A stretch of DNA of 32,000 nt from Candidatus Methylomirabilis limnetica. GTDB lineage: Bacteria > Methylomirabilota > Methylomirabilia > Methylomirabilales > Methylomirabilaceae. The position numbers were made by a program, and so were the translations under genes. Position 1 is the stretch's first letter. Each line of letters starts with the position of its first letter. The stretch is taken from NCBI RefSeq assembly GCF_003044035.1, contig NZ_NVQC01000016.1, positions 128,133 to 160,132 of the forward strand, read 5' to 3'. This document shows positions 283 through 17,879 of the stretch, piece after piece. The notes under the pieces are model-generated. The model was not told the DNA's origin. It ran no database searches and saw only the letters and a program-made list of their open reading frames with translations.

Positions 283-459
283 GACCGATTGCAACTACTC
301 AGATATTTAGACTGAAGGCTGAAGGTTGAAGGTTCTAAATTATCTCGCAAGGCACGAATCGAGCCATCCAAGACCTTTTCGGAGTTTTGTATGATTACGC
401 ATGACTTACCACTAAAAGCCTTCAGCCTTCAGCCTATCTACCTGAGTAGTTACGACCGA
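283..459. repeat. About 175-bp imperfect inverted-repeat element with heptamer arrays (CTGAAGG x3 at 312-332; CCTTCAG x2 at 419-432)
   Basis: Arm 283-335 (gaccgattgcaactactcagatatttagactgaaggctgaaggttgaagg) is about 80% complementary to arm 417-459. An approximately 80-nt non-coding spacer lies between them. Confidence 0.8.
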
Positions 460-2995: not shown

Positions 2996-3031
2996 GTGCA
3001 AAGGCCTGCCCCCGCGGGTGCGGGGGGTTCG

Positions 3032-3056
3032 GGGTACAGGGTGCAGGGTATGGGGG
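3032..3056 (+). repeat. Heptamer array GGGTACA GGGTGCA GGGTATG GGGG, preceded by a GC hairpin (3009-3026)
   Basis: Direct reading. The third unit contains the rsmH ATG (3050). The mraZ stop lies in a related GGGTATAGG at 2988-2996. Confidence 0.8.
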
Positions 3057-4348: not shown

Positions 4349-6142
4349 ATGCCGATGCAGCGTCGTACTCGCGAGAGATCGTCCAAAAAAGGAGAGGCCA
4401 CGCCCGCGCCAGCGAAGCTCGGCCGGTTACGGCGTCGCGTGATCGTGCTGTTCTGCTCGCTTGCTGCAGCCCTCACGATCATTTCCGGCCGGCTCTTTTC
4501 TCTCCAGGTGTATCAATACGCGGATCTCGTAGAGGCCGCCAAGCGGCAGTCCTCGGACCGGATTTCATCGGTCTCCAGGCGCGGAACGATTTACGATCGT
4601 AATGGTCGGGATCTGGCCATTAGCATTGGGGCTTCCTCAATTGGCGCTCGGCCGTCCCAAGTGGTGAACCCGAAACGTGCCGCCGCAGCCCTGTCTGCCG
4701 CGCTCAGCCTACCTGCCGAGAAGATCCTTGAGCGACTCCAAACGGAGAAGCCGTTTGTCTGGATCAAGCGATCAGTCTCCACGGAGGAAGCGCAGGCTGT
4801 TGCGCGTCTCATGCTGAAGGGGATCGAATCTGACACGGAGAGTAAGCGATTTTATCCAAAACAGCAACAGGCGGCCCACCTGTTGGGGTTTGTAGGGACA
4901 GACGATCGCGGGCTGGAAGGACTTGAGCTGCAGTACGATACCTACCTGGCCGGTAAGCGTAAGTGGCTTGCACAACAACAGGATGCCAGGCGTCGACCGA
5001 TCTTCAGAGAGGAAGCAGGTGAGGCGCAGGGTTCAGATCTACACCTGACGATTGATGAGGTGGTCCAGTATATCACTGAGCGGGAGCTGGAAGCCGCGGT
5101 GACCAAATCCGGCGCCCTCAGTGGCAGTGCCATTGTGATGGATCCTTTCAGCGGCGAAATCCTAGCACTTGCCAACTACCCCACGTTTGATCCCAATGCG
5201 TATACTGAGGCGGTGGCTTTCGCTCGCCGGAATCGGGCGGTGGTGGATTACTATGCGCCGGGGTCGGCCTTTAAGGCCATCGTGGGCGCCGGCGCCCTGG
5301 AGGAGAAACTCGTGCGACCCGAAGATCAGTTCGACGGAGATGGAGGCGCCATCACGGTGGGCGGGGTCACCATTCGGGATCATGAACGGTTTGGGATCAT
5401 GACATTTTCTGAGGTACTGGCTCACTCGAGCAATGTGGGGGCTATCAAGGTCGGCATGCGGCTGGGCAAGAGCCTCTACTACAATTACATCAGCGGATTC
5501 GGATTTGGAAATCTCACCAATATCGATCTGCCAGGAGAAACGCCAGGCTTGGTCCGGCGTCCGAAGGAGTGGTCGGCCCTCTCGCTCGCCTCGCTCTCCA
5601 TTGGGATGGAGATCTCCGTGAGTCCCCTGCAAATGCTGGTGGCGATGAGCGCGATTGCGAACGGTGGCATCCTGGTTCGTCCCTACGTGGCGAAGTCAAT
5701 CGTCGCGGCGGATGGCAAAGTTATCGTCGAGAACGCGCCCGTGCAGGTCAGGCGAGTGATCTCGGAAGCCACATCGAGAACCCTCGCGACTGTCCTCAAA
5801 GGGGTGGTAACGGAAGGGACGGGAAAGGAAGCGGCCGTAGAGGGATTCGATGTAGCAGGGAAGACCGGGACCTCTCAGAAGCTGGAACCAGCCACCGGTC
5901 GTTACTCTCAGCATAAGGTGGTGGCGTCATTTGTCGGGTTTGTCCCGGTCGAGCAACCTCGGCTGGCTATCATCGTGATCATCGACGATCCGAGCACGCT
6001 CCGTTGGGGTGGATCGATTGCAGCGCCGACGTTCCGGGAGATCGCTCGTGATTCCCTGAAACATCTCGGGATTACTCCGGGCACCCGAGAGCGGCTCCGG
6101 GTGGCAGAAGGGATTCGCAGTGCAACTTTTCGCCTTAATTGA
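4349..6142 (+). CDS. ftsI: peptidoglycan D,D-transpeptidase FtsI (class B PBP)
   Basis: 597 aa. N-terminal TM anchor and the transpeptidase motifs SAFK (GSAFKAIV), SSN (HSSNVGA) and KTGT (AGKTGTSQK). Confidence 0.9.
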   Translation: MPMQRRTRERSSKKGEATPAPAKLGRLRRRVIVLFCSLAAALTIISGRLFSLQVYQYADLVEAAKRQSSDRISSVSRRGTIYDRNGRDLAISIGASSIGARPSQVVNPKRAAAALSAALSLPAEKILERLQTEKPFVWIKRSVSTEEAQAVARLMLKGIESDTESKRFYPKQQQAAHLLGFVGTDDRGLEGLELQYDTYLAGKRKWLAQQQDARRRPIFREEAGEAQGSDLHLTIDEVVQYITERELEAAVTKSGALSGSAIVMDPFSGEILALANYPTFDPNAYTEAVAFARRNRAVVDYYAPGSAFKAIVGAGALEEKLVRPEDQFDGDGGAITVGGVTIRDHERFGIMTFSEVLAHSSNVGAIKVGMRLGKSLYYNYISGFGFGNLTNIDLPGETPGLVRRPKEWSALSLASLSIGMEISVSPLQMLVAMSAIANGGILVRPYVAKSIVAADGKVIVENAPVQVRRVISEATSRTLATVLKGVVTEGTGKEAAVEGFDVAGKTGTSQKLEPATGRYSQHKVVASFVGFVPVEQPRLAIIVIIDDPSTLRWGGSIAAPTFREIARDSLKHLGITPGTRERLRVAEGIRSATFRLN

Positions 6143-7634
6143 GGGGACCGAGTACCAGGTTCTCCACGGGTCTGTCGATGTAGAGGTCCATGATGTCCGA
6201 TACGATTCCAGACATGTGAGACCCGGGGATCTATTCGTGTGCATCAGTGGGTTCAGGCGGGATGGCCACGACTTCCTCCAAGCCGCATGGGCCGCGGGTG
6301 CCGTTGCAGCCCTGGTGGAGCGAAGCGACCTGCCGGAGGGTGCACTACGGGGTGGGACGGTGGTAAGGGTAGCCAATGCCCGGCAGAGCCTTGCCATGGT
6401 CGCGTGTCGATTCTATGGTCATCCCTCGCATAAGCTCGCCATGGTGGGGGTGACAGGGACTAACGGCAAGACGACCACCACCTACCTGATCGAGTCGGTG
6501 CTGCGACGCGCAGGACATCAGGTCGGGCTGATCGGGACTATCGGGTATCGCTGCAACGGGGTAGAGATAGAGGCGGCGCGGACGACACCGGAGTCCTACG
6601 ATCTGCAAGCGCTTCTCAATCGGATGGCGCATCTGGGCACTGACAGCGTCGTCATGGAGGTCTCGTCCCACGCCCTGGCCCTGCATCGCGTTGATGACTG
6701 CGAGTTTGACGTGGCCGTGTTCACGAATCTGACACAGGACCACCTGGACTTTCATGGCACCATGGAGGCGTACCGAAGCGCAAAGCTTTCTCTGTTTGAG
6801 GGGCTAGGTGTCGGGTCAACGAAAGCGACGGAAAAGGCGGCGGTCATCAATATGGATGATCCGGCTGCTGACCTCTTTCTCGGGGCGACGCGTGTGAGAC
6901 GCTACACCTACAGCGTGCAACGGCCGGCGGACCTGTCGGCCACCGATATCGATATGGGACCGGATGGAGTTCGGTGCCAACTGCACACCCCGTGGGGGAC
7001 GACGGCGATTCACTCTCCGTTACTGGGGGGCTATAACCTGTCCAACATCCTGGCAGCCGCTGCTACAGGGTTACATCTCGGCGTGGATCTGTCAGCGGTG
7101 GCAGACGGGATTGCCGCACTCCACCACGTCCCGGGTCGGTGTGAGCGAGTAGAGGGGGGACAGGAGTTCAGGGTGATCGTCGATTATGCGCACACCCCTG
7201 ACGCCCTGCGACGCGTCCTTCATATGGCACGGCAGTGCTGTCCGGGACGCCTGATTGTCCTGTTCGGGTGCGGGGGAGATCGAGATCGGGGGAAGCGTCA
7301 AATTATGGGAGAAGCGGCTCTGCAGTTAGCCGACTTTACTGTGATCACCTCCGACAATCCCCGCAGTGAGGACCCTCATCAGATCATCGAGGAGGTCGAG
7401 GCTGGGGCGAAAAAGGTATGGGGTCAGGGAAAGGGCTATGTTACAATTTTAGACCGGGCAATGGCCATTCGTGAGGCTCTCTCGCTGGCGGGACAAGGTG
7501 ACATGGTGGTGATCGCGGGGAAAGGGCATGAGGCCTATCAGATTCTTCACGATCGCACGATTCCCTTTGATGACCGACAGGTGGTCAGAGAGGCGCTTCG
7601 CGAGCTGGGGTTCAACCGTGAAGACAGGGTATAG
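6120..7634 (+). CDS. murE: UDP-N-acetylmuramoyl-L-alanyl-D-glutamate--2,6-diaminopimelate ligase
   Basis: GVTGTNGKTTTTYL P-loop, DYAHTPDAL, and DNPRSEDP (the DNPR motif typical of meso-DAP-adding MurE). GTG start overlaps the ftsI end by 23 nt. Confidence 0.92.
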   Translation: MQLFALIEGTEYQVLHGSVDVEVHDVRYDSRHVRPGDLFVCISGFRRDGHDFLQAAWAAGAVAALVERSDLPEGALRGGTVVRVANARQSLAMVACRFYGHPSHKLAMVGVTGTNGKTTTTYLIESVLRRAGHQVGLIGTIGYRCNGVEIEAARTTPESYDLQALLNRMAHLGTDSVVMEVSSHALALHRVDDCEFDVAVFTNLTQDHLDFHGTMEAYRSAKLSLFEGLGVGSTKATEKAAVINMDDPAADLFLGATRVRRYTYSVQRPADLSATDIDMGPDGVRCQLHTPWGTTAIHSPLLGGYNLSNILAAAATGLHLGVDLSAVADGIAALHHVPGRCERVEGGQEFRVIVDYAHTPDALRRVLHMARQCCPGRLIVLFGCGGDRDRGKRQIMGEAALQLADFTVITSDNPRSEDPHQIIEEVEAGAKKVWGQGKGYVTILDRAMAIREALSLAGQGDMVVIAGKGHEAYQILHDRTIPFDDRQVVREALRELGFNREDRV

Positions 7635-7647
7635 GGTGAAGGGTATT
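7627..7647 (+). repeat. Heptamer array GGGTATA GGGTGAA GGGTATT (single arm), followed by TGGTGGTGGTG
   Basis: Direct reading. The murE stop TAG (7632-7634) spans units 1 and 2. Confidence 0.8.
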
Positions 7648-7657
7648 TGGTGGTGGT

Positions 7658-8425
7658 GTGCTGATACGTGTCGGTGACCTGGACACCCATTTTACCGTGT
7701 GGGGAGAGGGGAGGCCGATAGTTCTCCTTCATGGGTGGGGTACCTCAGCCGAGTCCCTGGGTACAGTCGCCAAGGCTCTGGAGGATCGATTTCGGGTGTA
7801 CGCCCTCGATCTACCTGGTTTTGGCTGGACGCCATCGGCTGCTACGGTGTGGGGGACATGGGAGTATGCCTCCTATGTCGAGGCATTTATGGATCGCCTC
7901 AACATCTCGGTGGCCAGTCTGGTCGGCCATTCATTTGGAGGCCGAATCGCGCTGGCCCTGGCTGCCAAGTGGCCCGATAGGGTCAAGAGTCTTGTTTTGG
8001 TGGCCAGCGCAGGGATCCGCCCGAGACGAGGGCCTCTGTTCCGCATGAAGGTTGGAGCCGCGAAGCTGGCGAAGCAGGTGTTTTCGCTGCCTATGTGGGG
8101 TAGGCTGGGCGAGCGAGTGATTGCCGAACTCTATCAGCGGATGGGGTCGCGGGACTATCGGAACGCCGGAGCACTACGCGCTACGCTGGTCAAGGTCGTG
8201 AGCGAAGACCTCCGGGGGATCTTGTCGTCTGTTCGTACGCCTACACTGATTATCTGGGGAGACCGGGATCAGGAGGTGCCGTTCTCCTCGATGGAGATTA
8301 TGGCGCGCGGGATACAGGGCTCGCGGTTGGAGGTGTTCGAAGGGGCCGGCCATTTCCCGTTTGTTGACAGCCCGGACCGTTTTGGCCGGTTGGTAAGGGA
8401 GTTCTTGTGCCAGGACAGCCAGTGA
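7658..8425 (+). CDS. alpha/beta-fold hydrolase (serine esterase/hydrolase family)
   Basis: 255 aa. Oxyanion HGWG, nucleophile elbow GHSFGG, and late Asp (WGDRDQEV) and His (GAGHFPF) consistent with a Ser-Asp-His triad. Only GTG 7658 is available as a start. Confidence 0.8.
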   Translation: MLIRVGDLDTHFTVWGEGRPIVLLHGWGTSAESLGTVAKALEDRFRVYALDLPGFGWTPSAATVWGTWEYASYVEAFMDRLNISVASLVGHSFGGRIALALAAKWPDRVKSLVLVASAGIRPRRGPLFRMKVGAAKLAKQVFSLPMWGRLGERVIAELYQRMGSRDYRNAGALRATLVKVVSEDLRGILSSVRTPTLIIWGDRDQEVPFSSMEIMARGIQGSRLEVFEGAGHFPFVDSPDRFGRLVREFLCQDSQ

Positions 8426-10128
8426 TGCGGTCGGGTGTGGTACTTGGACCTTCACTCGCAGGCCGGGCCGTCACTGGTCTTTTGCCATATATGGCGGTCG
8501 TTATAATGCGCCATCTGGATCTGATATACCTTGCCCAGCTGGAGCGTTACAACAGTGCGCGCCTGCGTGGTTGGATCGCCAGGCACTGGGGCCTGGTTCT
8601 GAACGGCCGAGGGGCCCTCGTTCAGGTGGCGGTCTTAGGGGCCGGAATTCTCCTTGCGTTGTTACCTCTCCCTGTTTTTCCCGGCTTAAGGCATGCCGGG
8701 ACAGGCACGTTTTACATTATCTGGCTGGCCGCCGGTATGTGGCTGAGATCCCGGTGGTCCTCGCTGCAGGTCAGTCAGCAACTGCAGTGGACATCTCGAA
8801 CGGTACGCTTAGTAGCAGTCACGTTCCTCCTTGCGGTGGTGGCCATGCTTGTAACCTCCGGGTTGACTGTACTCTTACTGTCCAGACTCATGGTGGCCCC
8901 TCTCGCCCTCCTTGTCGGTATAGGCTTGGCTACCGGCCTGCTTGTGATGTCCGAGATTGCGGCGGGCACGGTCCTCGTGGCAAACCTGAGCCTCGCTCCA
9001 CTGGAGCAGGCGGTCAATCAACGCTTCTATGCGCAGGCTAAAGTGCGCATGCGTCAGTATCCCGGGGAGGTCGTCGGGATCACTGGAAGCTATGGAAAGA
9101 CGACGACGAAGTTCATCGCCGCGACGTTGCTTCAGAAGCGCTACTCGGTCTTTAAGACGCCTGACGGGGTCAACTCCACCATGGGTATCGTTCGGGTTGT
9201 CCGCGAGGCGCTTCGGGACGATCACCAGTTTTTCGTCGTCGAGGTGGCGGCCTACGGCCCCGGCGAGATCAAGGAGGTGTGCGAGATCCTGCGGCCCCGG
9301 ATCGGTATCCTCACGGCGGTTGGGGTCCAGCACCTCGAGCGGTTCGGCACGCCGGAACGGATCGCCGAGGCGAAGTATGAGCTGATCGATTCGCTTCCAC
9401 CGGATGGCTTAGCGATCGTGAACGCTGACGATCCAGGCGCTCTGCGATTGGCCGAACGCGCGAGGCGGGAAGGTCGACGCGTGATCTTGTACGGGGTCGG
9501 TGATGACGAACGGGATCTGGACGTTCGGGGGAAAGACGTCAAGCTCTCCAGCCATGGCTCGGCCTTTCGCGTGGAGACCGGGTATGGCGCGGCCATGTTC
9601 GAGACCAAGCTGCTCGGGGGCTGGAACATTGCCAATATCCTGGGGGCGACGGCTGCTGCCTTAGAGTGCGGTGTACCCCTGGAGGAGATTGCCGACGGGG
9701 TGAAGTCTCTTACGCCGGCGCCCAAGCGCCTGGAGCTTCGCGAAGAGGGTGGGGTCATCAAGCTGATCGATGTGGCCAACGCCAATCCGCTTGGGGCCCA
9801 GATGGCCCTGGAGGTCCTCAGCCAGTTTAAGGGGGGCTCGAAGATCCTGATCACGCCGGGCTTGGTGGAGTTAGGCCAGATCGAGGCGGAGGAGAACCGC
9901 CGGTTTGGCCGAGCTGCCGCTGCGGTCTGCGATTACGTCCTGTTGGTCGGGCCACAGCAGACACTACCGCTGCGTGAAGGGCTTCGCGAGGGTGGGTTTG
10001 CCGATAGCCGGATCCTGGTGGCCCGGCACAGCGGTGAAGTGACTGACCACCTCAAGGCGATCGTCCGAGAGGGCGATGTCCTGCTGTACGAGAATCGACT
10101 GCCTGATACGTACCTGGAGCTCGCATGA
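8425..10128 (+). CDS. murF: MurF-like Mur ligase (UDP-MurNAc-tripeptide--D-Ala-D-Ala ligase position) with a polytopic membrane N-terminal region
   Basis: P-loop GITGSYGKTTTKF at nt 9076, then LTAVGVQHLERFG and NANP motifs and a MurF-like C-terminal domain. About 215 residues with 4-5 hydrophobic helices precede the P-loop. ATG 8425 overlaps the hydrolase TGA (TGATG). An alternative GTG lies at 8407. Confidence 0.75.
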   Translation: MRSGVVLGPSLAGRAVTGLLPYMAVVIMRHLDLIYLAQLERYNSARLRGWIARHWGLVLNGRGALVQVAVLGAGILLALLPLPVFPGLRHAGTGTFYIIWLAAGMWLRSRWSSLQVSQQLQWTSRTVRLVAVTFLLAVVAMLVTSGLTVLLLSRLMVAPLALLVGIGLATGLLVMSEIAAGTVLVANLSLAPLEQAVNQRFYAQAKVRMRQYPGEVVGITGSYGKTTTKFIAATLLQKRYSVFKTPDGVNSTMGIVRVVREALRDDHQFFVVEVAAYGPGEIKEVCEILRPRIGILTAVGVQHLERFGTPERIAEAKYELIDSLPPDGLAIVNADDPGALRLAERARREGRRVILYGVGDDERDLDVRGKDVKLSSHGSAFRVETGYGAAMFETKLLGGWNIANILGATAAALECGVPLEEIADGVKSLTPAPKRLELREEGGVIKLIDVANANPLGAQMALEVLSQFKGGSKILITPGLVELGQIEAEENRRFGRAAAAVCDYVLLVGPQQTLPLREGLREGGFADSRILVARHSGEVTDHLKAIVREGDVLLYENRLPDTYLELA

Positions 10129-11435
10129 GTGGCGCCGCCAGACGCATAGGGCTGATCTTCGGAAGTCGCTCGGTGGAACGAGAGATTTCGATCATGACCG
10201 CCAGTAAGATCTATGAGGTCCTGCTCTCATTGCAGGACCAGTTCGAGACGCTGCCGATCTTTATTACGGCAGAGGGCACATGGCTTACCGGCGAGGCGGT
10301 TCGGGATCTGTTGACGGTCGATGCCGAGATACGAAAGCTGGCGGAACGAAGCGTTGTGGCGGGAACGGCTGAGCGATCGAAGCTCGACGCGGAAAAGCTG
10401 CGGTTGAATCGGGATCGATACATACCCCTGCTTGACAACCTGGACCGGGGCCAGAGCGCGACGGGGGTTGATCCGCTCTTTCTGGCGCCGGACCCATCGG
10501 TCGGCACGTTGGTGCCGCAGCAGGAGCGAAAAGGCTGGCTTCGCAAACAGCTCCACCCCACAATCGACGTCGCCTTCCCGGTCATTCATGGGACGCATGG
10601 CGAGGATGGAACGATTCAGGGTCTGTGTGAATTGGCCGATCTGCCGTATGTGGGGGCTGGGGTCACCGCCTCGGCCATAGGAATGGATAAGATTATCTCC
10701 AAGCTCATCTTTCAGGGCGCAGGCCTTCCTGTTGTTGAGGGGGTCGGTATCACCAGACGCGAGCTGTTGGAGGATGAGGCGGCCGTTGCGAAGGGGATTG
10801 AGCGCAGGTTGAGCTACCCGGTGGTAGTCAAGCCTGCCGTGGCCGGTTCCAGCGTTGGCATAGGTATGGCTCATAATGCGGGCGAAGCGCTGAGCTTGGC
10901 GAAGCTCGCAATGCGCTTCAGCTCCCGCGTGCTGATAGAGCGGGCTGTTGAACAGCGGATCGAGGTGCAATGCGGCGTCCTGGGCAATCACGCGTTGACC
11001 GTCTCGGAATGTGAAGAGATCATCAACTCGGGCGAGGTTGTGGGCTACCGCGACAAGTACCCGGAGGACACACAGCCGGGAAGCGCGGATCTCGCGCCGA
11101 GCATCATTCCCGCCAGGATTCCAAAGACCCTTGCAGACGAGATACGCTCCATGGCAGCAGCAGCCTTTAAGGCGATCGACTCGCGCGGGATCTCCCGGGT
11201 CGATTTTCTTATCGACTCGGCCGCGATGAAGCCGTACGTCAATGAGGTCAATACCATGCCGGGGTCGCTTTCCTTTACCCTCTGGGAGGGAAGCGGGGTG
11301 AAGCCTGCGGAGCTTGTTATTCGTCTGGTGGAATTGGCGCTTGAGGCCCATCGAGAAAAGCGCTCAACCCATTTCAAATCGACAGAGGGCAGGGCGTTGG
11401 TGGATCGGCGGCATCTGGTGACGCCGGGCAAATAG
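10125..11435 (+). CDS. ddl: D-alanine--D-alanine ligase (long form, 436 aa)
   Basis: IGLIFGSRSVEREIS, FPVIHGTHGEDGTIQGLCELADLPYVGAGV and NEVNTMPG motifs (ATP-grasp Ddl). ATGA overlap with the murF stop. Confidence 0.9.
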   Translation: MSGAARRIGLIFGSRSVEREISIMTASKIYEVLLSLQDQFETLPIFITAEGTWLTGEAVRDLLTVDAEIRKLAERSVVAGTAERSKLDAEKLRLNRDRYIPLLDNLDRGQSATGVDPLFLAPDPSVGTLVPQQERKGWLRKQLHPTIDVAFPVIHGTHGEDGTIQGLCELADLPYVGAGVTASAIGMDKIISKLIFQGAGLPVVEGVGITRRELLEDEAAVAKGIERRLSYPVVVKPAVAGSSVGIGMAHNAGEALSLAKLAMRFSSRVLIERAVEQRIEVQCGVLGNHALTVSECEEIINSGEVVGYRDKYPEDTQPGSADLAPSIIPARIPKTLADEIRSMAAAAFKAIDSRGISRVDFLIDSAAMKPYVNEVNTMPGSLSFTLWEGSGVKPAELVIRLVELALEAHREKRSTHFKSTEGRALVDRRHLVTPGK

Positions 11436-11440
11436 GAGCA

Positions 11441-11505
11441 GGGTATAGGGTAAAGGGTGTAGGGTCTAGGGGAGGATCGAGACGTGGAACTCCTAAACCC
11501 TCTAA
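11441..11505 (+). repeat. Heptamer array GGGTATA GGGTAAA GGGTGTA GGGTCTA GGGG plus a short complementary arm (CCTAAACCCTCTA, 11492-11504)
   Basis: Direct reading. Fills the ddl-mraY spacer. Confidence 0.8.
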
Positions 11506-12597: not shown

Positions 12598-12611
12598 AGG
12601 CGTTGAGAAAG

Positions 12612-12707
12612 GTTTCGAGCTTCGAGTTTCGAGTTTCGAGTGCCACATGTCAGGTTTCACGTTACGAGTTTGGCTTACTCGAAACCTGGAACCCGGAACC
12701 CGGAACT
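12612..12707 (+). repeat. Second-family heptamer element: GTTTCGA-type x4 (12612-12639), 20-nt core CACATGTCAGGTTTCACGTT (12644-12663), CGAAACC/YGGAACC x4 (12680-12707)
   Basis: Direct reading. Partially self-complementary. Homologous to the element at 16342-16410. Confidence 0.8.
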
Positions 12708-12721
12708 GCATGGTGGTAACC

Positions 12722-15216: not shown

Positions 15217-16424
15217 AGGCCATCATTACAGGAGGTGGGACTGGCGGTCACCTCTTTCCTGCCATTGCGTTAGCCGAGGAGCTCAGGTCAAGAAGGACAG
15301 ACGTGTCGCTCCTATTTGTTGGCGTCGAGGGAGGAATTGAGGCATCTTTGCTGGCTACGAGAGGTTGGGACTTCGAAGGGATCAGGGCTTCCGGCCTACA
15401 GGGCAAGCGCCTCCTGTCGCGGCTTAGGAGCCTCACGCTGATCCCCTCAGGCCTCATCCGGGCTCTATCGATCCTTAGACGGTTCCGTCCCGATGTTGTG
15501 GTTGGGTTTGGTGGCTACGCCTCGGCTGCCATGGTACTGTCGGGAGTGCTTGCGAGGGTCCCGACCGTGATCCATGAACAGAACGCCTTGCCAGGGCTTG
15601 CCAATCGATGGTTGGGGAGGATCGTTGATAGCGTCGCGGTTGCCTTCGAAGAGGCATCTGATTTTTTCCCCAAGAGTAAGGTGCGGGTGACCGGTAATCC
15701 AGTCCGAGCGGAGCTCTTCGGCGTGAGCAGGGCAGAGGCAGCGACCCGCTTGGGTCTCGATCCAAATCGATTCACCCTTCTGATCTTCGGTGGCAGCCAG
15801 GGGGCTCACCGGCTGAACCAGGCGGTTATGGAGGCGCTCCCTAAGCTTACAGACGAGCGAGAGCGGATCCAGTTCATCCATGCCACGGGTCCGCGCGACC
15901 TTTCTCTTGTCCGGCAAGGGTATGACGCTCTTGGATATTCCGCGGCGGTAGAGCCGTTCTTTCAGGCGATGGCCGTGGCGTATGCCATCGCCGACCTCTG
16001 TTTCTGTCGGGCCGGCGCCGGCACGGTGGCAGAGCTCTGCGCCCTGGGGAAGCCGTCGGTACTCGTTCCGTTCCCCTTTGCTGCTAACGATCACCAGCGC
16101 TACAATGCTGAAGCGCTGGTCGCCTCCGGCGGAGCCCGGATGGTGCTGGACCACGATCTAAGTGGTGCCACGGTAGCCGAGATCATACGGACGTTTCTTC
16201 GCGACAGAGAGGGACTTGAGGTCATGGCACACAGGGCGAAGAGCTTAGAGAAGCCGGACGCGGCGATCCGCTTAGCCGATCTCGTGACGCTGACTGCGTG
16301 CCAGGCGCCAGGCGCCAAGTTCTACGTCGGGTTCCAGGTTTCACATGCCAGGTTCCACGTTGGAGATCCGAAACCCAAAACTCGAAACCCAAAACTCGAA
16401 ACTGGAAACTGCAGCGATGTTTAA
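15213..16424 (+). CDS. murG: UDP-GlcNAc--lipid I N-acetylglucosaminyltransferase MurG, with a repeat-encoded C-terminal tail
   Basis: GGGTGGHLFPAIALAEEL N-terminus. GTGA overlap with ftsW. 403 aa, of which the last ~40 codons run through the heptamer element. Confidence 0.9.
   Translation: MKAIITGGGTGGHLFPAIALAEELRSRRTDVSLLFVGVEGGIEASLLATRGWDFEGIRASGLQGKRLLSRLRSLTLIPSGLIRALSILRRFRPDVVVGFGGYASAAMVLSGVLARVPTVIHEQNALPGLANRWLGRIVDSVAVAFEEASDFFPKSKVRVTGNPVRAELFGVSRAEAATRLGLDPNRFTLLIFGGSQGAHRLNQAVMEALPKLTDERERIQFIHATGPRDLSLVRQGYDALGYSAAVEPFFQAMAVAYAIADLCFCRAGAGTVAELCALGKPSVLVPFPFAANDHQRYNAEALVASGGARMVLDHDLSGATVAEIIRTFLRDREGLEVMAHRAKSLEKPDAAIRLADLVTLTACQAPGAKFYVGFQVSHARFHVGDPKPKTRNPKLETGNCSDV
16342..16410 (+). 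repeat. Second-family heptamer element: core CACATGCCAGGTTCCACGTT (16342-16361) plus CGAAACC CAAAACT CGAAACC CAAAACT CGAAACT GGAAACT (16369-16410)
   Basis: Direct reading. 18/20 identity of the core with 12644-12663. Confidence 0.85.
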
Positions 16425-17796
16425 GAAGATCCGGCACATCCACTTCGTAGGGATTGGGGGAGTCGGGATGAGCGGGATTGCCGAAGTTCTCTACAATCTT
16501 GGCTATCAGGTTAGCGGCTCCGACCTGAAGGTGTCAGAGCATGCCCTTCGTCTCCGGGAGTTGGGTGTGACCGTACAGATCGGCCACGATCCCGCCCATG
16601 TAATGGATGCCGACGTCGTGGTCCGCTCCTCGGCGGTCTCTCCAGAGAATCCCGAGATTGTCGCGGCGAAGGTCCATGCTATCCCGGTCATTCAGCGGGC
16701 TGAGATGCTGGCCGAGCTGATGCGGATGAAGAAGTATGGCGTGGCCGTTGCCGGCACCCATGGGAAGACCACGACAACCTCCATGGTGGCCACGGTCCTG
16801 GCCAAGGCTGGCCTTGACCCTACCGTGGTCATCGGGGGCAAGCTGGATGCGCTTGGCAGCAATGCGAAGCTCGGGCAGGGCGAGTTCATGGTCGCGGAGG
16901 CCGATGAGAGCGACGGCTCTTTTCTCAAGCTGGCTCCCACCATCGCTGTGGTGACCACCATCGACGCCGAGCACCTCGATTACTACCGCGACCTGCAACA
17001 GATCAAGGAGACGTTCCTCGAATTCATCAATAAAGTCCCCTTCTACGGCTCCGCTATTCTGTGTCTCGATCAAGAAGAGATCCGAGACCTGTTGCCCAGG
17101 GTGCAGAAACGCATTGTCTCGTATGCCTGTAACGCGCGGGCTGATTTGACGGCAGAGGGGGTCTCGCTCACCGGACTCAGCTCCATCTTCAAGGTGAGGT
17201 TCAGGGGAGAGCCTCTGGGGGAGGTGCAACTCAGGGTTCCCGGGTTGCACAATGTGTCGAATGCGTTGGCAGCGATAGCAGTAGGCCTCGAGCTGGAGAT
17301 CGAATTTGCCGAGATCCGGACGGCGCTCGGGGAGTTCTCCGGTGTCGCTCGGCGCTTCCAGGTGAGGGGGAGTCCTCAGGACATCATGGTGGTGGACGAC
17401 TACGCCCATCACCCGGCAGAGATCCAGGCCACGCTACAGGCGGCCAGGGCTGGATTTGAGCGGCGACTGATCGCCGTCTTCCAGCCGCATCGTTATACCA
17501 GGACCTTCAGGCTCCTCCCCGAGTTTGCTTCCGCTTTCGATCTGGCCGATCAGGTGATCATCACCGAGATCTACCCGGCGGGAGAGGCGCCGATTGTCGG
17601 CGTCTCCGGCAGACAGCTTGCGGACGTGATTGCCAGCCGGAGAGGGCCAAAGGTCCTGTACGTGGAACGCAAGGAGGAGATCCCGGATCGGGTCGTTGAT
17701 CTGGCCCGTCCTGGCGACCTGGTCATCACTATGGGCGCGGGAGACATCTGGAAGGCCAGCGAGCAGATTGTCGGCCGACTGCAAGAAAGGGTATAG
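16417..17796 (+). CDS. murC: UDP-N-acetylmuramate--L-alanine ligase
   Basis: MFKKIRHIHFVGIGGVGMSGIA N-terminus, GTHGKTTTTSM P-loop. The track ORF start at 16345 lies in the repeat core. Confidence 0.9.
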   Translation: MFKKIRHIHFVGIGGVGMSGIAEVLYNLGYQVSGSDLKVSEHALRLRELGVTVQIGHDPAHVMDADVVVRSSAVSPENPEIVAAKVHAIPVIQRAEMLAELMRMKKYGVAVAGTHGKTTTTSMVATVLAKAGLDPTVVIGGKLDALGSNAKLGQGEFMVAEADESDGSFLKLAPTIAVVTTIDAEHLDYYRDLQQIKETFLEFINKVPFYGSAILCLDQEEIRDLLPRVQKRIVSYACNARADLTAEGVSLTGLSSIFKVRFRGEPLGEVQLRVPGLHNVSNALAAIAVGLELEIEFAEIRTALGEFSGVARRFQVRGSPQDIMVVDDYAHHPAEIQATLQAARAGFERRLIAVFQPHRYTRTFRLLPEFASAFDLADQVIITEIYPAGEAPIVGVSGRQLADVIASRRGPKVLYVERKEEIPDRVVDLARPGDLVITMGAGDIWKASEQIVGRLQERV

Positions 17797-17874
17797 GGTA
17801 GAGGGTGGAGGGTATAGGGTTTAGGAAAAGCACTGATGCTGAGGTTTATACCCTACACCCTAAACCCTATACCC
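17789..17874 (+). repeat. Inverted heptamer arrays: GGGTNNA x5 (17789-17825), 21-nt loop, TNNACCC x4 (17847-17874)
   Basis: Direct reading. The arms are complementary unit for unit. The murC TAG (17794-17796) lies in the first unit junction. Confidence 0.9.
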
Positions 17875-17879
17875 TAACT

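Follow-up and report, generated by a model that had tools for sequence, protein, structure and literature searches.

Palindromic heptamer elements in a Methylomirabilis dcw operon and the probable origin of the Arg-Val-stop endings of murE and murC

Results

Arg-Val-stop endings and GGGTNNA arrays in the dcw operon

The window, the whole 32,000-nt stretch of DNA that was analyzed, comes from Candidatus Methylomirabilis limnetica (contig NZ_NVQC01000016.1). Pfam matches and the closest relatives show that it holds the dcw operon (genes of cell division and the cell wall) of a species of Methylomirabilis, in the phylum NC10/Methylomirabilota. The subject of this report is a set of 7-nt tandem repeats with the unit GGGTNNA that lie between the genes of this operon, and their relation to three genes that end in Arg-Val-stop. 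Pfam identifies MraZ, MurE (Mur ligase N, M, and C domains), MurC, and Ddl. The genes run in the order mraZ (2546-2995), rsmH, ftsL, ftsI, murE (6120-7634), an alpha/beta-hydrolase gene (7658-8425), murF, ddl (10125-11435), mraY, murD, ftsW, murG, murC (16417-17796), murB, ftsQ, ftsA, and ftsZ. MraZ is 93% identical to its M. oxyfera counterpart, MurC is 92% identical to that of a Methylomirabilis sp., and MraY is 87% identical to that of a groundwater metagenome-assembled genome (Candidatus Methylomirabilota). The related DNA used for comparison amounts to about 200 kb of loci designated by L-numbers; L087 is the M. oxyfera locus and the others are loci of relatives.

Three of the 26 genes in the window, mraZ, murE, and murC, end in Arg-Val-stop, and no other gene does. 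The last codons are CGG GTA TAG in mraZ (2987-2995), AGG GTA TAG in murE (7626-7634), and AGG GTA TAG in murC (17788-17796), and the proteins end ..GIRV, ..EDRV, and ..QERV, respectively. An initial annotation of this DNA had given these positions, codons, and endings correctly. It had also identified the stop codon in every case as the TAG of GGGTATAGGG, which fits murE, whose stop (7632-7634) lies within the first unit of an array, and murC. It is wrong for mraZ, where the site reads GGGTATAGGT and no array lies directly 3′.

Tandem Repeats Finder and a period-7 scan show that most intercistronic gaps of the operon carry heptamer arrays of several unit types, typically a purine-rich arm followed by its complement. 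The GGGTNNA arrays occupy 3032-3052, 7627-7647, 11440-11472, and 17788-17825. The sequence GGGTATAGGG occurs 5 times in the window against 0.02 expected, the tandem 7-nt unit with a G-tract is seen in 14 occurrences of GGGTNNAGGGT against 0.21 expected, and RGGGTRTAG occurs 7 times against 0.37 expected. The features built from this unit are the following.

3003..3054, plus strand: segment with three heptamers in the mraZ-rsmH spacer (found by alignment, Tandem Repeats Finder, and a regular-expression scan).
7621..7647, plus strand: remnant of the murE/hydrolase element, with the 5′ terminus GAAGAC and the units GGGTATA GGGTGAA GGGTAT.
11436..11505, plus strand: ddl/mraY element, with the G-arm AGGGTATA GGGTAAA GGGTGTA GGGTCTA GGGG at 11440-11472 and the partial C-arm CTCCTAAACCCTCTAA at 11490-11505.
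17782..17879, plus strand: complete murC/murB element, with a G-arm of five units (17788-17825), a loop (17826-17846), and a C-arm of four units (17847-17877).

The murE stop codon lies in the element after a 6-nt deletion

The murE/hydrolase junction carries full hairpins in L085, L086, L087, and L088. MurE of L085 and L086 ends ..FRRE with a TGA stop codon, and AAAGACAGGGTATAGGG follows immediately 3′ of that stop. In L088 the protein ends ..FSGE at a TAA and the element begins 3 nt later, and in L082 it ends ..FCRS at a TAA and the junction has the C-arm only. MurE of L089, L090, L091, and L092 has its own end and its own stop, with no array at the junction. The protein is 501 to 502 residues long with its own TAA or TGA in L082, L085, L086, L088, L089, and L090, and the gene also has its own stop in L091 (482 residues) and L092 (514 residues). 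It is 504 residues long in the window and in M. oxyfera, where exactly GAG TGA is missing and the gene reads CGT GAA/AAA GAC AGG GTR TAG. The absence of exactly these six bases, set against the stops of the relatives, shows by sequence comparison that the murE stop codon was captured from the element through an in-frame GAG TGA deletion in the lineage of the window and M. oxyfera.

The window retains only half of the murE element. Three G-units remain, the loop and the C-arm are deleted (junction GGGTAT/TTGGTGG), and the remaining sequence forms no hairpin (z −0.05). As read from the junctions, the window lost the loop and C-arm later than the stop capture.

The murC stop codon lies inside the array

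The murC gene ends (A/G)A(A/C) AGG GTR TAG in the first unit of the array in the window, L082, L085, L086, and L090, and the murC/murB array is present in the relatives L082, L083, L085, L086, and L090. L083 has variant units, and its murC reads four units further and again ends AGG GTG TAG. The last four murC codons of L082 and L085 (AAA/GAA GAC AGG GTR TAG) are the same sequence as the 5′ terminus of the element at the murE and murF junctions. In the array-free L091, murC is of almost equal length and ends GAG GGG CGC TGA (..EAEGR). An RV ending is found in 13 of the top 33 MurC homologues and in none of the next 87; among these 87 the commonest endings are GR (26) and ER (12). From these endings we infer that the element replaced roughly the last three murC codons and the stop. 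The insertion or fusion at murC would be the older of the two and would date to the ancestor of the array-bearing members of the genus.

The mraZ ending is older than any repeat

The mraZ gene of M. oxyfera ends CGT GTG TAG and that of L088 ends CGA GTA TAG, and both are followed by 32-nt spacers that are free of arrays. The L089 gene ends CGA CTG TAG. The ATCCGNGTRTAGGTGC context at the end of mraZ is kept in the alignment of L087 and L088. All 36 full-length MraZ homologues at the genus level end IR[V/I/L/M], and deeper relatives stop two residues earlier, mostly with ..LG[I/V/L]. The orthologues show an Arg-Val-TAG at mraZ that, by this comparison, is ancestral and predates any repeat, with the match to the unit arising through synonymous third positions only. 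The initial annotation had proposed a repeat-derived ending here and had named an Arg-Val-stop in repeat-free relatives as the sign of an ancestral register; L087 and L088 have that ending.

The heptamers nearest to mraZ are GGGTACA GGGTGCA GGGTATG at 3032-3052, 36 nt downstream, and they sit in a segment of about 34 nt that the relatives lack. This segment contains a GC hairpin (CCCCCGC GGGT GCGGGGG), and its fold is no better than that of shuffled sequences (z +0.29). The probable rsmH ATG (3050) lies inside the last unit, GGGTATG, and the relatives appear to start rsmH at a GTG 12 nt further on.

The proposal of the initial annotation that the repeat inserts at or replaces native 3′ ends is supported for murC, where the last codons are the element terminus and L091 ends differently. 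It is supported in modified form for murE, where the element first stood just after the native stop and the GAG TGA deletion then fused it to the open reading frame (ORF). It is refuted for mraZ.

The GGGTNNA copies form one element family

On the mRNA strand the element consists of a G-arm (GGGTNNA)n, a loop that starts A-rich, and a complementary arm (TNNACCC)n. The conserved sequence at its 5′ end is (A)AGAC-AGGGTATAGGGT, GGGTATA is the first unit in almost every copy, and the element ends are CAGGGT...ACCCTG, resembling terminal inverted repeats. The 16-mer AGACAGGGTRTAGGGT is found at three non-orthologous junctions. It is present at murE/hydrolase in L085, L086, and L087 and in the window (7622-7637), at murC/murB in L082, L085, and L086, and at murF/ddl in L083, L084, and L088. 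On this sequence evidence the GGGTNNA copies are assigned to one element family. Paired G- and C-arms occur at murC/murB and ddl/mraY in the window and at murE/hydrolase in L085, L087, and L088.

Every G-arm lies from −8 to +13 nt relative to the upstream stop codon. The ddl/mraY G-arm starts 4 nt 3′ of the ddl TAG (TAG GAGC AGGGTATAGGG); the initial annotation had put this copy 6 nt past the stop, which is close to the measured 4 to 5 nt. The number of units at murC/murB ranges from 3 to about 25 across the relatives. The ddl/mraY element is absent from L082, L089, and L091. Empty junctions are only 1 to 13 nt long (L082 ddl/mraY and mraY/murD; L091 ddl/mraY).

The complete murC/murB element has a predicted fold of −52.7 kcal/mol (z −8.0), in which the murC TAG (17794-17796) is paired in the foot of the stem. 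Other complete elements have z between −2.6 and −4.4, for example −4.2 in L085 and −2.9 and −3.9 in L087. The ddl/mraY fold is weak in the window (−20 kcal/mol, z −1.3) and its M. oxyfera orthologue is fuller (z −3.9). The quadruplex motif of four G3 tracts separated by 1 to 7 nt (G3N1-7 ×4) is matched by the mraZ-rsmH segment and by the G-arms at ddl/mraY and murC/murB. The window total for this motif is 5 against 2.8 in shuffles, which is not clearly above, and arrays account for 3 of the 5 plus-strand matches. Almost all genes in the loci lie on one strand and no arrays lie beside minus-strand genes, a distribution that makes a test of array orientation uninformative.

A terminator scan gave no terminator-like match at any array, and the C-arms are followed by CTATGAGG or TTGGTGG and not by the T-runs of a Rho-independent terminator. 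A search of the whole window against Rfam 15 returned 0 matches at the gathering score.

Array colonization is lineage-specific

L089 and L091 (74-81% protein identity) have zero heptamer arrays in the same operon, and their spacers are GC-rich and non-periodic. Their array-free operons indicate, at the level of sequence, that colonization by arrays is lineage-specific within the phylum. In M. oxyfera the upstream dap/pan operon has arrays of such heptamers in nearly every spacer. Period-7 arrays number 24 per 100 kb in the NC10 loci, only about 96 kb centered on one operon, against 2.9 per 100 kb in 78 loci of other phyla, a difference of about 8-fold. Periods 5, 6, 8, and 9 are not enriched in the NC10 loci, and period 10 shows a slight difference that comes from 3 arrays.

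The unit encodes Arg-Val-stop in every frame

Whichever of the three frames is translated, (GGGTATA)6 yields RV* after no more than three units. AGG GTA stands before each TAG of (GGGTATA)n, and successive TAGs cover the three frames in turn, since 7 is not a multiple of 3. The shared RV-stop of genes that run into an array follows from the unit itself. The initial annotation had noted the common register of the stops; any frame that enters (GGGTATA)n ends RV-stop within three units. A stop in the first unit has a chance of 1/3 per independent event and there were two independent events, so the shared register is not remarkable.

Units that lack stop codons are translated instead. Reading of (CTGGAAA)n produces ETGNWKL-type MurC tails in L092 and several other homologues. 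Distant Methylomirabilota MurC proteins (P0037-41, P0045, P0048, P0051, and P0054) have tails of 10 to 25 residues with a 7-residue periodicity that are translated (CTGGAAA)n. The array in L092 (11360-11440) starts exactly at the conserved murC Leu-Glu codons, TTG GAA.

Discussion

Origin of the murE and murC stop codons

The favored explanation, with a probability of about 0.72, is that small palindromic heptamer elements in the gaps of the operon supplied the stop codons of murE and murC as a by-product, and that the mraZ ending is independent of them. Genes of the operon abut or overlap, and the insertions that survived would be those that fit into the few bases between a stop and the next start. 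The G-arm would thereby be placed about 0 to 13 nt from the upstream stop, and it lies flush with gene ends because only insertions into small gaps survive. Any ORF that then ran into an array would terminate within three units, always with ..Arg-Val-stop, and loss of the native stop would be nearly cost-free and could become fixed. The elements would be transcribed in the operon mRNA, where they may adopt strong hairpin folds, or a G-quadruplex may arise in the G-arm. Slippage alters the number of units, either arm is lost in some relatives, and close relatives differ in which whole copies they have. The loss of arms (at murC in L082 and L083, at murE in the window and L082) and the patchy presence of copies argue against strong selection, and the effect of the elements on fitness is probably small.

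Several observations weigh against this explanation. No relative has the element just 3′ of an intact native murC stop, and the steps at murC cannot be reconstructed. The murC/murB array persists even where MurC identity between genomes is down to about 81%, and its stem pairs the stop codon; both could reflect selection. The mraZ end matches GGGTATAG at 8 of 8 bases and lies beside an inserted array fragment, so local conversion instead of coincidence could account for it. Comparison by eye of filled and empty ddl/mraY and mraY/murD junctions revealed no consistent target-site duplication, and only weak, inconsistent similarity, for example AAATAGGAG versus TAATGAGG. No transposase was found in the loci examined, where no search for RAYT (REP-associated tyrosine transposase) genes was made, and the related DNA examined amounts to only about 200 kb.

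The persistence of the murC/murB array, which is retained in six genomes with the murC stop paired in the stem in both the window and L085, leads to the alternative that the arrangement is selected. A stop in the hairpin foot or in a G-quadruplex arm would then couple murC and murE termination to RNA folding and adjust the stability or processing of the mRNA or how the next gene is translated, as is reported for Escherichia coli REP sequences near stops. The G-arm is always the first arm on the sense strand and no more than 13 nt from the stop, the ddl and murC G-arms and the mraZ-rsmH segment match the quadruplex motif, and the GGGNATC repeats are reported to have the same positional bias (PMC4692102). 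Against this, the C-arm of murC/murB is missing in L082 and L083, murE/hydrolase keeps only the G-arm in the window and only the C-arm in L082, the ddl/mraY and mraY/murD copies come and go among close relatives, and L089 and L091 do without any arrays. The CTGAAGG and GTTTCGA units found in other gaps cannot form G-quadruplexes, the motif total does not clearly exceed that of shuffled sequences, and no array is followed by a terminator-like tail. Selection for a folded stop is accordingly considered unlikely. A broader proposal, that self-propagating elements throughout the Methylomirabilota rewrite C-termini (RV-stop, the ETGNWKL MurC tails, the MurG tail), that stops within stems couple termination to hairpin or G-quadruplex folding, and that dcw expression is set in this way, is regarded as rather improbable.

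Growth of the arrays in place, by slippage from a native heptamer over the stop such as an ancestral ..GGGTATAG, would mean that the stop never came from outside; the initial annotation had offered this as its second possibility. The mraZ end is unit-like and yet outside any array, a single junction varies from 3 to about 25 units, the (CTGGAAA)n array of L092 begins at native murC codons, and the FAA-hydrolase gene of L087 and L088 is followed by two GCTGA-type units, the first of which holds a TGA stop. Slippage cannot create a complementary downstream arm, however, and the 16- to 19-nt terminus AAAGACAGGGTATAGGGTG common to three non-orthologous junctions and the similar A-rich starts of the loops speak against independent growth. 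The best candidate for a seed, mraZ, has no adjoining array in any genome examined, and at murE a native stop demonstrably preceded the array. Slippage is an unlikely origin for the arrays, and what stands of the proposal is its role in later changes of unit number. Simple coincidence, in which three genes merely happen to end Arg-Val-TAG, holds for the ancestral ending of mraZ only. A rough estimate based on the usual abundance of Arg and Val (about 0.5% for each gene) predicts about 0.1 such genes where 3 of 26 are found, the excess of RGGGTRTAG is not explained, and at two of the three genes the ending coincides with the first unit of an array. Coincidence is refuted for murE and murC and is highly improbable as an account of all three.

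The supply of stops by small elements explains how unrelated essential proteins come to share a C-terminal Arg-Val, and the murE 6-nt deletion provides a clean, dated case in which an intergenic repeat captured the stop codon of a gene.

Relation to known repeats

The closest known relatives of the GGGTNNA elements are the G-rich heptameric repeats GGGNATC of Xanthomonas and GGGGA(C/T)T of Nostoc, described as quadruplex-forming (Rehm et al. 2015, PMC4692102). Convergent inverted pairs of sites able to form stem-loops number 70 in Xcc and 75 in Xac, both Xanthomonas (PMC4692102). Both systems have 7-nt units with a fixed G-tract and variable positions, lie in intergenic regions between co-oriented ORFs on the coding strand after stops, overlap stops, form convergent inverted pairs, and vary in unit number between close relatives at one junction. 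The Methylomirabilis elements differ in the unit, GGGTNNA, in the phylum, NC10/Methylomirabilota, and in that the quadruplex is predicted here from the motif alone. They also carry AGAC, a conserved 5′ terminus outside the repeat, and nearly always begin their arrays with GGGTATA; several other heptamer types of these genomes, though not G-rich, build hairpins of the same architecture. Heptamer hairpins of the Xanthomonas and Nostoc type extend to a distant uncultured methane-oxidizing phylum, and the elements add a new case to a known class of bacterial repeats and reveal no new mechanism.

The TAACTGA heptamers of marine Beggiatoaceae, cyanobacteria, and Bacteroidetes are direct repeats (MacGregor 2015, PMC4679880). 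They are likewise intergenic heptamers with stops in three frames that overlap upstream stop codons (PMC4679880), and their reverse or stop-free readings are also translatable as 7-residue protein repeats. They differ in being almost always direct, with no inverted partner, and in the sequence of the unit. TAACTGA repeats also lie just upstream of start codons and are proposed to be binding sites for a translational regulator (PMC4679880).

Two further groups of small repeats share features with the GGGTNNA elements. Repetitive extragenic palindromic (REP) sequences and bacterial interspersed mosaic elements (BIMEs) of Enterobacteria and Pseudomonas are short imperfect palindromes present in many copies in operons, often just after stops, with hundreds of them in a genome, and REPs are linked to RAYT transposases (IS200/IS605-like Y1). 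They resemble the GGGTNNA elements in forming RNA hairpins and in their presence or absence among relatives, but REP arms are not tandem heptamers. MITEs (miniature inverted-repeat transposable elements) such as Correia elements, and the Rickettsia palindromic elements, insert at gene ends and alter C-termini. The likeness to MITEs lies in the ends CAGGGT...ACCCTG, which are like terminal inverted repeats, the copies at non-orthologous sites, and the supply of stops or short C-terminal tails. Unlike MITEs, the Methylomirabilis elements showed no consistent target-site duplication by eye, and their arms are internally periodic and change by whole units. A literature search found no paper in which repeats of the heptamer, quadruplex, or palindromic kind are connected with Methylomirabilis or Rokubacteria.

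Other heptamer arrays and features of the window

Arrays of other unit types in the window are the following.

309..437, plus strand: CTGAAGG-type hairpin, (CTGAAGG)3 ... (CCTTCAG)3, 5′ of panB (fold −42.9 kcal/mol, z −4.35).
12608..12712, plus strand: mraY/murD hairpin, (GTTTCGA)4 ... (CGAAACC/CGGAACC)4 (fold −36.5 kcal/mol, z −2.6).
16297..16413, plus strand: stop-free arrays (GCCAGGC; CGAAACY/CAAAACT) within the murG 3′ end, translated as a C-terminal tail.

The hairpin upstream of panB has orthologous copies in L087 and L088. The GTTTCGA element at mraY/murD is found in L085, L086, and L090 and not in L082 or L083. Arms of the types CAGCYRT and GCTGAHM make up a further heptamer family, found in the panC-mraZ spacer (2275-2300 and 2405-2435), at 9780-9900 in L087, and, in a more distant relative, at 2789-2900 in L002.

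The MurG tail encoded by the array is ..PKPKTRNPKLETGNCSDV in the window (16297-16424) and ..SRQSTVNSPQSTVNTSRCRDV in L090 (9940-10008). In the window, L082, L083, L085, L086, and L090, murG terminates at the TAA of ATGTTTAA, overlapping the start of murC. In L091 and L092, murG ends before murC. The murC and murD starts in public gene calls (483 and 485 residues) run upstream through heptamer arrays (16345-16416 and 12647-12720 in the window; also L081 and L085). The conserved starts are at 16417 for murC (MFKKIRHIHFVG) and near 12721 for murD. Extended murC and murD starts, together with MurC and MurG tails encoded by arrays, are a hazard for annotation of NC10/Methylomirabilota genomes.

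The alpha/beta-hydrolase gene (7658-8425) lies between murE and murF, and a long ddl (436 residues) lies between murF and mraY. This order is kept in the Methylomirabilota loci that span those junctions, including the array-free L091 and the distant L092. Just 5′ of mraZ, at 2451-2520, three GTGGGATRWA repeats spaced 10 nt apart follow a promoter-like TTGACA-17-TATTGT. This site looks like an mra promoter with an MraZ operator, and it is conserved in M. oxyfera and L088.

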